This document shows, in pieces, positions 35,849-57,810 of a stretch of DNA of 64,000 nt. Where the stretch lies: contig OZ024743.1 of the NCBI GenBank assembly GCA_964016885.1, positions 101,618,001 through 101,682,000 on the forward strand. Direction: 5' to 3'. A program made the translations under genes and the position numbers. The stretch is from Eledone cirrhosa. Taxonomy: Eukaryota. Under the pieces are notes generated by a model that worked only from the letters and a program-made list of their open reading frames with translations, ran no database searches and had not been told where the DNA came from. Every line of letters begins with the position of its first letter. Within the stretch, counting starts at the first letter, position 1.

Positions 35849-35913
35849 TATCTATCTATCTATCTATCTATCTATCTATCTATCTATCTATCTATCTATC
35901 TATCTATCTATCT
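35849..35913. repeat. (TATC)n microsatellite upstream of the Tx1 array
   Basis: Pure TATC run; the same repeat separates the elements at 41709-41733, 47445-47526, 47809-47963 and 53834-53850. Confidence 0.95.
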
Positions 35914-36130
35914 GGGATGGACACACGCGTATAACTTGCTGAGTAAGTTCTGTTTAAATTTCTATAGAAATTCTTGTCTGATAACTTTAATTTTTGTACC
36001 ATTTTGTAGAGGGACTGCCAGGTCAAACTTTGATCTGGTCAGTCTCTCAAAATATTCTACGCATTTAGGCGAAATAGTTAAACAAAAAAAAAAAAAAGTT
36101 TTTTCTTGTTGAAAAGTCAATATTTTTTAA

Positions 36131-53850: not shown

Positions 53851-56800
53851 GGACGTGCGGTAGATCGTCGGTAAGTTTTTGTAAAATTTTCTATACAAAA
53901 ACAGAATTTATTGTGTGAAAATTTATATTGTTTGATAGATTAACACCCAGGCTGAATTGTCAGCTGGGTGGCAATCTCAGTTTTCGCCCCACGGGGCCGG
54001 AAATTTTATTTGACAAATTTTCAAAAAATTTAATATTTTTGCTATTGATAATGGCTAACTTAGTAGAAGCAACGCTACTGAACGCTGACGAAGAAAGTAG
54101 AGAGAGAGAAATGCAGAGAGTAACGTTACCGCAACTTTTGTCTACGTAGGCGTCACCATGGAGACAAATAGTGACAACAAAGTTTTGTTTTGCCAAGAAG
54201 CCGAAAAATGCAACTTACAAGATGGACCACACAGCTTACAACAGACATCAAAAACCACAAAAAATGAAACAATAGACACAACTACAAACGGAAAAACCGA
54301 CAACCACAACAACAACAACAAAAAAAAAACTTATACAGAAACAGTCACAAATAATAATAACGTTACCTTTAACTCCGCATGTATTGGCGTCACCATGGAC
54401 ACCAATATGGACAACAAAACTAAAAACAAGATGGTACAACAGACAGAAAAAAACAACAGAAAATAAAACCATTGACACAACTACAAACGGAAAAACCCGA
54501 CAACCACAACAACAACAACAACAACACCAAAAAACTTTTGGGCAAACAGTCATCAAGACACAAGATTTCAAGGATCTCGATATCTCCAATGTGAAACAGA
54601 TGCTCTCAAAAGCAAAGGAGTTTATCACTTTCGGTGAAAACGGTGGATTTCAGATAAACTCACCCCCCAAAATTCGTCTGGAAACATTTCGAAGGACACT
54701 TACCTTCAGAACTGGTTCAAATGAATAAAAACGACCAGCATTCCTCAGTCAAGGGGAAATTGAGGCAAGCTTGAAGGAGATATTGCCAGACATTGACTTT
54801 ATGCAGAGGGCCAAACAGTACGGGAGTATTTCGGTACTCCTCAAAAGCGAGGCCCTTGCACAAAGATACTCAGTGACGCCAATACTGTCACAAAAATACA
54901 CCTTTTTCCCTACATACCTGGGAAAAAGGACACAAAAATTAGAGTTTCAAACATATCACCAAATATTAATATTTGGTGGATATTGACAGGATTTTTAGAG
55001 GAGAGAAAAGATACCATTCTCTCCATCAAAAAGTCAACCAGACACACCTGGTCTGGTACAAATTTGGAGATTCTTGTGCAAATGAGCCCGGAAAGAATCT
55101 CCAAAATACCAGAAAAAGTCCTGGTGGACAACAACAGCCACATAAACATTACGGTGGAGGGAGAAAACCACATTGCTTTCGTTGCAATAGCACCACTCAC
55201 CTATAGGCCTCCTGCCCTTTACAAACACACTCAACCAAAACAATACAAAAGATAACACTTTTACCAACACCGTCACCAAAACACCCACCACCACAACAAC
55301 AACAACTCACGAAAAAAGCAAACACACCAAAACAAACAGCCACTCAACCAACAAAAACAGAAAAAACACAGACAACACCCCTGAAGAACACAGCCCCACG
55401 CCATCCCACTCCATCAAACACTACCACAAACACACACACCGAAATACCATCATAACACAACATACCCCTACCCCACACTCCTGACGATGATTATTCATCG
55501 ACAGATGAGGCTGCTTCTCCTTCTTTAAGTGAAGAAGAATGAGAGCCTCGGAAATGTAAAAAGCAAAAAAAGAGACACTACAAAACCCCCAAAACTCCAA
55601 TCACCAACACCAACACACAACCACAGACACAAACAACAACACAAACAACACCACAGTCAAACATCCCCTACCAGCAAAACCAACACCAACACCACCCCAA
55701 ACAAAAGCACCCACCATAAAAAGAAAACTCCCGGACGAACAACAAACTAAAACAACACAACAGAAACACAAACAACAATACGCATACATCAACACAAACA
55801 ACAAGAGTTTGATGGAGGTTATCTCCCAAAACACCAAGGTGGAGACGGAGGGCAAAACTTTCGTCAAGGCAGAATCGTCTCCACACCTTAAACTTATAAG
55901 GGTTTCTATGGATTCTATAGTGACGTGAAAAATAAATTTTCGCAGGACGAGGAAAACCCCTGCCAGAAACCCATCAACCACGTCCTGTTAAAATGTTTCC
56001 CCACCCCACCCAACACCCCTCCAGCACCCAAATGGAGATTGAACAACAAGATCTCCAGGAAACGAAAAGGTAAGTGCACCTTTTGGTCGTTTTTCTCCAA
56101 CTCTTCTTCCCAAATATGGCTAGTTTACGAGTTGGAAGCGTGAATATACGTGGCCTAGGGATGCCCTGGAAACAGGGCCAACTTTTAAACGGCCTTAGGT
56201 CTCACGGTATGGATGTGATAGCCATCACCGAGTCCAGGATCCACAACAGGCAGCAACTAACCCCCATTTTCAATGACTTTGAGATCTACGCATCTCTCTG
56301 TCAGCCAGGAGGTGGAGCGGGAGTGGCTGTCATGTTTCGGAAGAACCTGGACGTCGAAGTACATCAAGTACACTTGGACCCGGAGGGTAGACTGGTAGGC
56401 CTAGACGTGAACAGTATTGTAGGTGGAGCCTTCAGACTGGTGGCCGTTTATGCCCCGACCGGGCAATCGCAATCACGGCCAGACTTCTTTAAGCGTCTAG
56501 AGTCTTTTCTGGGAACGTCTCGCTCCTTGCTTTTAGTGGGGGACTGGAATGGTATCCTAGATGCACGATGGGACTATGTGGGAGTATGTCCCAGTAGAGG
56601 GGTGCAACAGCCTCAAAACTTTAATCGGCCAATTCCACCTGGCCGATAGGTATCGACTGGATTTCCCAACTGCACCACAGTGGACGTGGGCAAACCGTAG
56701 CGGGACATCTAGATCGTATTTTGATAGGTTCTTCATTAGAGAAAGGGACAAGATGTTAAGCTGTCCACGAATGCACATGATAGAATACATAGACAGGGAC

Positions 56801-57810
56801 CCGGATACTGGAAGCTGAACGTGTCGTTACCGGCACGTAAAGCTTACAGTGAACGGATAAGTAGACTAGTCAAGCAACAGTTAACGGGAGCTATCGTCAA
56901 CAATAGATGGTGGTACTCTCTCAAGAAAGCAATTAGACTAGAATCGATAGGGTTTAGCAGAGAGTTAGCCTTAGAGAAAAACAGAATAGAAAGAGAACTA
57001 GTAGCCAAGGTAGGGGAGGCACTTAGAAGTGGCAACGCGGCTAGAGTGTTAGCGTCGAGAACGGCACTGGACCAGTTCTTCGATGCGAAACACGACGGCT
57101 GCAATCAGTGGAGAATCCACTTCGACATTCTATAGAGGGATTGTACGTTACAAGGGCGACAACGTGCTCGGAGAGACTCTGGGCGACGAAGACGATGAGC
57201 TCGGGACCTATGGACAACTTCCAGAGGTCCCTGGCCTGGCAGTGCTACCGAGGAGCTGTACAAGTTCGTGACAACATCTACACTGCCCGGGCGCAACCGA
57301 CCTGTGGAACTATGCAGAACAACTGTTGTCGCGTATGGGACAAATCCAGTTGACTGCCGAGTCCATAGTAAGGATCAAACCGCCAGCCTCTTTCAAAAAC
57401 GAAAGAGCGGCGGTTTTCCTCTGTACAGTGGCTATGGTGAAAGAGGTTATAGGGTGGACGAGATTGAGAGGACTGAGGACAGATGCCTTTCTCTCCGGAC
57501 ACAAATTGATTCCCTTCTTTAAGTATCACTTTAGAAGGAGATCAGAGTGGAGAGAGAGTCACTGCCCTCCAATAAATTTACTGAAAGGTGGGTGAATGTG
57601 GCAAAAATGGCTCGAGTGATTGGGCCTTCTCTGTTTATAAGCCTGTAGGTTAAAGAAGAGAGCAAAAGGAAGAAAGGAGCACTTGCACAACACGCTCCTG
57701 GAGTTGAGGGTTGTTCTATCGACGGGCTATTAAACAACCCATTTGTGGTGCTTTCCCCCTATTGGGGATTTCGATTGTTGTAATTGTTTGTTTTATATTT
57801 TTTACACGAC
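53851..57810 (+). mobile_element. Tx1-clade element 4 (heavily decayed, RT deleted, 3' terminus lost)
   Basis: ORF1 fragments ~54051-56073 (CFRCNSTTHL); ORF2 from ATG 56116 jumps from KHDGC to ISGES at ~57103; stop at 57646-57648. Confidence 0.88.

Follow-up and report, generated by a model that had tools for sequence, protein, structure and literature searches.

A Tx1-type LINE lineage of Eledone cirrhosa with a probable preference for (TATC)n/(GATA)n microsatellites

A 64-kb stretch of Eledone cirrhosa DNA (contig OZ024743.1, positions 101,618,001 to 101,682,000; hereafter the window, the single stretch to which all our counts of elements, tracts and junctions refer) bears four long interspersed nuclear elements (LINEs), E1–E4, and a short fragment of a fifth copy, F5. 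In every case the 5′ neighbour is a TATC-containing repeat. We conclude that the five copies probably belong to one octopod-associated Tx1-type lineage that favours (TATC)n/(GATA)n tracts for its insertion by target-primed reverse transcription; in other words, this is probably a GATA-targeting Tx1-type lineage.

E1–E4 and the tracts between them lie on the plus strand. A (TATC)16T tract (35849–35913), preceded by no 3′ end of the family, leads into E1 (35914–41708), which is full length and the least decayed copy, and a 25-bp spacer, (TATC)6T (41709–41733), joins E1 to the full-length E2 (41734–47444). The 519-bp gap that follows (47445–47963) is filled by a partly decayed host compound microsatellite made up of a TATC block, a decayed TATC/TC-like part with (TC)22 and a second TATC block. 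It ends at the full-length E3 (47964–53833), which is connected by a 17-bp spacer, C(TATC)4 (53834–53850), with E4 (53851–57816), the most decayed copy, which has lost its final ~55 nt and abuts (TC)24. The four elements thus begin directly after (TATC)16T, (TATC)6T, (TATC)4 and C(TATC)4, respectively (4/4), where the (TATC)4 ahead of E3 closes a TATC block of ~155 bp. At the intact 3′ ends of E1, E2 and E3, AATAAA is followed by 5–8 nt and then directly by TATC on the same strand (3/3). Both regularities, and the single orientation relative to the repeat, had been pointed out in an earlier note on this DNA made from the sequence alone, and they stand.

A combined BLAST and profile search of the window recovered E1–E4 and one further family copy, F5 (33766–33815, minus strand), which lies outside the region covered by the earlier note. 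F5 is a 5′-truncated E1-type element of which only the 50-nt 3′ tip is left, 96% identical to E1 41658–41708; read on its sense strand, it is preceded by a mixed TATC/TC repeat and followed by TATCTATCT. F5 is located on the genomic strand opposite to that of E1–E4, yet has the same orientation relative to the repeat. Together, a TATC-containing repeat was found at 5/5 5′ junctions and 4/4 intact 3′ junctions, in one orientation and on both genomic strands, and poly(A) at none of the four intact 3′ ends. Since the 3′ tract of E2 continues into the decayed host microsatellite and the TATC block 5′ of E3 lies ~280 bp beyond, the locus consists of two dimers, E1–E2 and E3–E4. The four-element array described previously therefore keeps its coordinates, with the corrections that it comprises two dimers 519 bp apart and that a fifth copy had been missed.

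To see how common such repeats are, perfect tracts of at least 12 bp outside the elements were counted, which gave 162 tracts of 4170 bp in total. The AGAT class contributes 9 tracts and 336 bp, i.e., 8% of the tract length, and commoner classes are AT (87 tracts), AC (24) and AG (18). Eight of the nine AGAT tracts are situated at or between the elements, and the ninth (59752–59767) is empty. For a class that makes up 8%, the chance of being hit in three independent tracts is ~5e-4, or ~1e-4 with orientation included, figures that are indicative only as the window was chosen after the fact and the F5 tract is imperfect. A family is reportedly regarded as target-specific by Kojima's criterion when one sequence type makes up >20% of flanks over many copies in a genome; among the window copies, 5/5 flanks counted were TATC-containing. 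The former claim that GA tracts hold no element is right for pure tracts and needs qualification in that E4 abuts (TC)24 and F5 is flanked by mixed TATC/TC. Likewise, one TA tract does hold an unrelated LINE (13246–16362, plus strand; endonuclease and reverse transcriptase (RT) domains in Pfam), RTE-type by our reading. This LINE has a TA/CA-rich tract on its 5′ side; its 3′ end bears its own short tandem tail, beyond which lies a TA tract. The LINE serves as an internal control, being another LINE at another repeat and devoid of a strong splice-donor motif.

A tail of this kind is what would have to be assumed for the window elements too if TATC were encoded by the element, as are the tandem tails of RTE, CR1 and L2 elements, with the clustering due to a local hotspot or to insertion beside the element's own kind. 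The 5′ tracts of E2 and E4 coincide with the 3′ tracts of E1 and E3, so that tails are conceivable there, and the RTE-type neighbour as well as the stacking of the relatives described below, which proceeds without a microsatellite, fit such an explanation. At E1, E3 and F5, however, TATC stands at the 5′ end with no family 3′ end upstream, and hence their 5′ tracts are not tails. F5 retained just 50 nt; its 5′ repeat can therefore be neither a tail nor cargo on the 5′ end of the RNA. Furthermore, none of 64 ends in the relatives has an added tail, whatever its type. In the earlier note, non-GATA 5′ junctions had been named as the finding that would turn TATC into a mere tail, and within the window F5, E1 and E3 all proved to have TATC at this side. 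We thus consider the tail explanation improbable, and the observations support TATC as the target side rather than merely a tail.

The elements are clearly products of separate insertions. Their ORF2 (second open reading frame) sequences are 73–86% identical at the nucleotide level, with synonymous divergence (dS) of 0.43–1.02 and a nonsynonymous to synonymous ratio (dN/dS) of 0.19–0.29 in 6/6 pairs, which indicates that the subfamilies diverged while active and that decay following a duplication is not the source of their differences. As noted before, the 5′ untranslated regions (5′UTRs) barely align, and pairs with E2 score no better than shuffled sequences. The proposal of independent insertions of distinct subfamilies is thereby borne out. 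It is scarcely credible, for comparison, that the locus arose by tandem duplication of one insertion, by a single template-jumping event or by an assembly artefact: the head-to-tail order, the 17- and 25-bp spacers and the near-identical repeats in the relatives' arrays are what such events would leave, whereas ORF2 identity of 73–86% with dN/dS of ~0.2 largely refutes them, the 5′UTRs are unalignable, and within a dimer the two copies are decayed to very different extents (E3 vs. E4). Despite the unalignable sequence, hairpins occur at the same place in all four 5′UTRs (z-scores of −6.4, −3.7, −2.1 and −4.4 for E1–E4; 36009–36048 in E1), which implies that all four elements have true 5′ ends.

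The degree of decay increases in the order E1 < E2 < E3 < E4. ORF2 of E1 has a single premature stop; E2 has lost the ORF2 start codon and has one frameshift near 43965, besides one frameshift in ORF1; E3 has accumulated five frameshifts and three stops in ORF2; and E4 has eleven indels there, one of them a 1742-nt deletion. In each dimer the younger copy is situated 5′ of the older one, and decay rising from E1 to E4 is what repeated insertion at one site predicts. The 17-bp E3–E4 spacer matches the 5′ flank of E3 at 16/17 positions and is a probable target-site duplication. Two other candidates did not hold: a 17-bp duplication read by eye at F5 was unsupported (best match 12/14), and an ‘ACA’ duplication flanking E1 was rejected, CA being part of the element as F5 shows. 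As a separate observation, E1 (35914–35922) and E2 (41734–41744) have a few extra 5′ bases before the shared (A/G)GAC start; in E2 they contain GATAGA, which is reverse-complementary to the neighbouring target, and in E1 a near match to it. These bases may possibly represent a snap-back or a tag at the 5′ junction.

The most plausible course of events would be as follows. The ORF2 protein (ORF2p) would nick the GATA strand. The RNA, cleaved shortly after an AAUAAA that stands 5–8 nt before the element end, would terminate in a few read-through UAUC units. These would pair with the nicked strand and so set the orientation, after which a second nick ~17 nt away would duplicate the target. As the upstream tract would survive, later subfamilies could recut it, each newcomer landing 5′ of an older copy and one duplication apart, which would give the observed order, E3 before E4 and E1 before E2.

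Relatives of the window elements were also looked for. An earlier genome scan with E1 ORF2 alone had given 16 pattern matches, none of them confirmed. An alignment-based scan gave 55 loci, 43 of which (L001–L042 and L050) lie on 16 contigs of CAXXMW01. The junction counts exclude the other 12 (L043–L049 and L051–L055), whose identity is 27–30%. The relatives, whose ORF2 is 40–43% identical to that of the window elements, stand head to tail in 427 kb of sequence, separated by spacers of ~12–24 nt that fall into about ten groups. None of 64 relative 3′ ends is followed by a TATC repeat or an A-run. In two arrays with both flanks available the spacer corresponds to host sequence present in duplicate, 16 nt long and exact in one and 18 nt long (16/18) in the other, and in a third array the two flanks match just partly. 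The spacer is also found ahead of 5′-truncated copies. Thus, tail-less stacking at one site, with copies one duplication apart, characterizes the wider lineage, TATC being particular to the window branch, and this supports TATC of the window as the target.

The source of these relatives deserves mention on its own. CAXXMW01 is filed as a bacterial metagenome-assembled genome, while by content the 16 contigs are for the most part made up of intact eukaryotic LINE arrays, with up to about ten units of 6.4–6.8 kb each, i.e., host DNA in a species-representative genome. The arrays amount to a satellite-like LINE expansion in their own right. Within them, L018 and L033 (contig 7) and L020 (contig 17) have the typical spacers of other arrays stacked at some 5′ ends, which suggests that the RNA may carry the donor flank at its 5′ end as well.

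The question then arises of what recognizes the target. It is possible, although we doubt it, that the specificity resides in the endonuclease alone, the apurinic/apyrimidinic endonuclease (APE) domain reading GATA directly, as that of Tx1L reads its target, with no RNA read-through involved. The four subfamilies, which have diverged by a dS of up to 1.0, have in common both the target and a nearly identical endonuclease hairpin loop, Tx1L-EN nicks its target specifically (PMC1950540), and Kibi and Koshi serve as precedents (PMC4494074). On the other hand, the loop between the anchors in the window elements has 9 residues, the length found in L1, and the extended betaB6–betaB5 loop of 11 residues described for Tx1L and TRAS1 (PMC1950540) was not found in them. 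In the relatives, this loop is identical in 7/8 cleanly read clusters, their spacers differing and forming about ten unrelated groups, which weighs against a purely protein-coded specificity. In addition, with AATAAA only 5–8 nt from the end, read-through into the repeat would be hard to avoid.

At the opposite extreme, a loose endonuclease would be guided wholly by the RNA, the target being inherited via the read-through flank, so that an ancestor once inserted in TATC kept homing there. Such homing would account for one relative spacer that is shared by 28 ends on five contigs with different flanks and also precedes 5′-truncated copies, for one array end that has just the first 12 nt of the spacer, and for the old spacers stacked at some 5′ ends. 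Double insertion followed by unequal exchange would, however, yield most of this picture (PMC5932611), and overlapping contigs could stem from one large locus, so we hold homing by RNA alone to be rather unlikely. We think that the endonuclease and RNA pairing both contribute to the target preference. As the sister lineage combines nearly the same endonuclease with many spacers, the choice between protein and RNA read-through is directly testable there.

Several points weigh against a GATA-targeting lineage as outlined above. The data come from a single 64-kb window chosen post hoc, with three tracts within 25 kb, and local hopping could inflate the GATA pattern; at least five TATC-like clusters elsewhere in the window carry no insertion. 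The flanks of F5 and the 3′ flank of E4 are TC-rich, so that the preference may be for a looser pyrimidine-strand TC/TATC motif, and no target-site duplication could be resolved at F5, the best match of 12/14 being of low complexity. To this should be added the tandem stacking of the relatives without any microsatellite, the L1 length of the endonuclease hairpin, and the 3′-terminal stem-loops, which are no better than in shuffled sequences (z about 0).

The assignment to the Tx1 type rests on the architecture of the elements and on their tree placement. Elements of the Tx1 clade have a gag-like ORF1 with domains of the RNA-recognition motif (RRM) type and a CCHC knuckle, and an ORF2 in which an N-terminal APE endonuclease and an RT precede a C-terminal zinc domain. 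In E1, ORF1 (36131–37927, 598 aa) is open and has an RRM-like core and one CCHC knuckle between low-complexity flanks, and ORF2 (37952–41389) encodes the APE endonuclease, RT and zf-RVT, with the premature stop at codon 46 (38087). Pfam searches of ORF2 gave RVT_1 in E1 and E2, Exo_endo_phos above the cut-off in E2 and just under it in E1, and zf-RVT below the cut-off in both; the catalytic motifs are present, and the nearest solved structure by sequence is that of L1 ORF2p (E = 1e-45), followed by R2 (1e-19). As to ORF1, zf-CCHC was detected in 7/7 aligned cores (weakly in E1, E = 0.25) and RRM_1 weakly in 2/7, with tandem-RRM proteins matched at E = 0.005 and Atlas matches to zf-CCHC (0.92) and a ZCCHC3-type RNA-binding domain (0.89), so that the RRM-type core is indicated weakly. 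A search of cluster representatives with an ORF1 profile returned 2477 nameless matches, which were not used further, and neither was a single-sequence fold of an endonuclease fragment (pLDDT, the predicted local distance difference test, of 37). We also observed at the C-terminus of ORF1, past an unalignable low-complexity stretch, a conserved MEI-x-x-P/Q motif ~12 residues before the stop in 4/4 elements (approximately at 37886, 43711, 50079 and 56032).

The closest named protein is a fragment from Argonauta hians with 62% identity. RT trees unite the window elements with the Argonauta protein and the unnamed relatives in one clade, with support of 100/100 in the second tree, from which 14 of 44 rows had been dropped (long branches, near-duplicates and short rows), and a Shimodaira–Hasegawa-like approximate likelihood-ratio (SH-aLRT) value of 99 in the first, quick-search tree. 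This clade is placed outside the fish/amphibian set that contains the Danio ‘pol-like’ protein and the Takifugu RT, and sits in an unsettled fork with ORF2s of fish, amphibians, lancelet and coral; among the rows of the trees there was neither a Repbase-labelled Tx1, Kibi, Koshi or Keno sequence nor an L1 from a vertebrate.

The elements also carry an unusual layout of splice signals. Eight of the nine sense GTRAGT motifs in the four elements recur at two corresponding positions, one near the start of the 5′UTR (35943–35948 in E1; equivalents at 41796, 48017 and 53871) and the other at the end of ORF1 (37924–37929 in E1, followed by a pyrimidine run; equivalents at 43735, 50116 and 56070). Their placement is skewed, with 4 in the 5′UTRs vs. 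0.29 expected and 1 in ORF2 vs. 5.7 expected. In each element, none of the 172–283 GT sites outscores the donor at the end of ORF1, which falls into three different codon phases (2, 0, 1 and 2 in E1–E4). A candidate acceptor, a pyrimidine tract with TAG|GT, coincides with the ORF2 stop (41365–41391 in E1; equivalents end at 47212, 53595 and 57648) and by pyrimidine content ranks 2/109, 1/108, 1/110 and 1/66 (three tied). In the relatives, a perfect donor occurs one base past the ORF1 stop in 42/44 complete units, in linker sequence unrelated to that of the window elements; it matches the consensus at 9/9 positions in 9/10 clusters. A 5′UTR donor is present in 41/44 complete units, and a third donor after ORF2 in 42/44, with a strong acceptor ~250 nt further on, in the 3′UTR. 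An acceptor ahead of the ORF2 start, which would give an ORF2-only mRNA, was ruled out by the lack of AG there in E1 or E4.

It is rather likely that the donor at the ORF1 stop is spliced to the acceptor at the ORF2 stop to produce a predicted ORF1-only mRNA. The simplest reading of the layout is that ORF2 would lie within a retained intron, the intron-retaining RNA making ORF2p and serving as the transposition template. Several findings count against this prediction: GTRAGT motifs total 9 vs. 6.3 expected, with no excess; in the relatives the TAG of the ORF2 stop is a weak acceptor (rank 41–53 of ~108, lost in 4/44), the better one being in the 3′UTR; one relative cluster (2 units) has an overlapping TAATG in place of the donor; and the nine donor-bearing clusters are ~89–99% alike and hence count as one lineage. 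The donors might instead be U1-binding sites that keep the long RNA from being polyadenylated prematurely, without serving to splice out ORF2, an idea we entertain with reserve. Donors are indeed better conserved than acceptors, and U1 has the same role in EVD (PMC5580714). This does not readily explain why the best-ranked acceptor of the window elements falls exactly at the ORF2 stop, why a strong acceptor is found in the 3′UTR of the relatives, or why the end of the predicted spliced ORF1 differs from that of the unspliced one by no more than one residue in E1 and E3 (+3 residues in E2, +28 in E4). Separately, the cluster with the overlapping ORF1/ORF2 junction is a divergent family (L034, contig 12) with no donor at that place and a donor 222 nt into ORF2 instead, i.e., two expression strategies would occur within one clade.

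Full-length LINE transcripts have reportedly been found in octopus neurons; since a spliced RNA of the predicted type would make no reverse transcriptase, such splicing bears on how these transcripts are read. A bolder proposal, which we put forward as a speculation with the odds against it, is that the 10–20 nt of flank after AAUAAA would act as a heritable guide, giving a (GATA)n branch and sister branches with near-identical endonucleases at other inherited 16–18-mers, where they would build arrays, all with an ORF1:ORF2 ratio set, in copia-like fashion, by splicing out ORF2 as an intron.

As for the surroundings of the elements, ordinary host DNA flanks the array on both sides, and no telomeric repeat array was found among the window repeats. 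Rfam at the gathering threshold gave 0 matches for the window and 9 relative loci, hence no RNA-gene target or ribozyme. At 6200–7395, a 470-bp inverted repeat (94%) surrounds ~255 bp whose translation, by eye, resembles what we take to be the GIY-YIG end of Penelope; it is probably an inverted Penelope pseudo-LTR (long terminal repeat). A dispersed ~180-nt repeat family without an Rfam match has at least 10 copies on both strands, some in tandem (22111–24638, 34665–35504, 12877–12968 and 58263–58363). A GC-rich 173-bp tandem repeat occupies 2469–3834, with related copies nearby, and one ORF tested in it had no Pfam match.

If our conclusion is true, (GATA)n and a mollusc host join the short list of LINE-targeted microsatellites. 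Among APE-type LINEs this list comprises (TC)n, (TTC)n, (TTCC)n, (TTTC)n, (AC)n and (ACAY)n (PMC3812793; PMC4494074), and (TATC)n/GATA is absent among the targets listed in these two papers. No GATA-targeting LINE was found in the literature searched, which did not extend to Repbase, Dfam and the supplements of PMC4494074, any of which could hold one. The mechanism of microsatellite targeting has been called not well understood (PMC3812793), and the question of protein vs. RNA bears on the evolution of specificity and on programmable LINE insertion.

Compared with known systems, the window elements differ from L1 proper in lacking a 3′ poly(A), which occurs at 0/4 window ends and 0/64 relative ends. 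They resemble Kibi at (TC)n, Koshi at (TTC)n and the crocodilian Tx1 families at (TTCC)n/(TTTC)n as APE-type two-ORF LINEs in a pyrimidine-strand microsatellite, and differ from them in that the probable target is (TATC)n, TC occurring only mixed at F5 and at the broken end of E4, and that the RT belongs to a 100/100 clade of its own. Waldo, Mino, Dong and Togen are members of other clades with an R1-type or restriction-like endonuclease. They target other repeats, namely (ACAY)n, (AC)n, (TAA)n and (TG)n, respectively (PMC3812793, PMC4640811). Unlike the telomeric arrays of HeT-A/TART and TRAS/SART, the window array is not located at a telomeric repeat. L1-Tx1 elements are widespread in molluscs (PMC10294476), and Octopus vulgaris has 80 L1-Tx1 families of 56 Mb, 13 of them recently active (PMC13282606). 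These are of the same class and probably from the same host group as the window elements, which may well be among the O. vulgaris consensus sequences and so already in a library; the searched text of PMC13282606 and a search of its supplement gave no target preference and no mention of GATA or TATC.

Regarding expression, L1 splicing (SpIREs, spliced integrated retrotransposed elements) is reportedly on record, and no LINE intron matching ORF2 was found in a literature search judged by titles and abstract openings. The Ty1/copia element EVD produces a gag-only spliced mRNA and has a conserved U1 site (PMC5580714). The likeness to the layout predicted here lies in alternative splicing with intron retention, which would supply the structural protein in excess of the enzyme; the difference is that EVD is an LTR element with one ORF, while ours is a non-LTR element whose predicted intron corresponds to ORF2 end to end.

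Finally, in the mode of insertion the window elements resemble R1 of insects. Tandem copies of R1 are separated by the target duplication (PMC5932611), and the RNA of R1Bm has to carry target sequence from the downstream side (as cited in PMC7265360). Both systems have in common the repeated insertion at one site, giving element–duplication–element, the absence of a tail and, probably, the pairing of RNA with the target. R1, however, belongs to another clade; its target is 28S rDNA and the spacer of the tandem in D. melanogaster measures 33 nt, as compared to a microsatellite and ~17 nt in the lineage described here.

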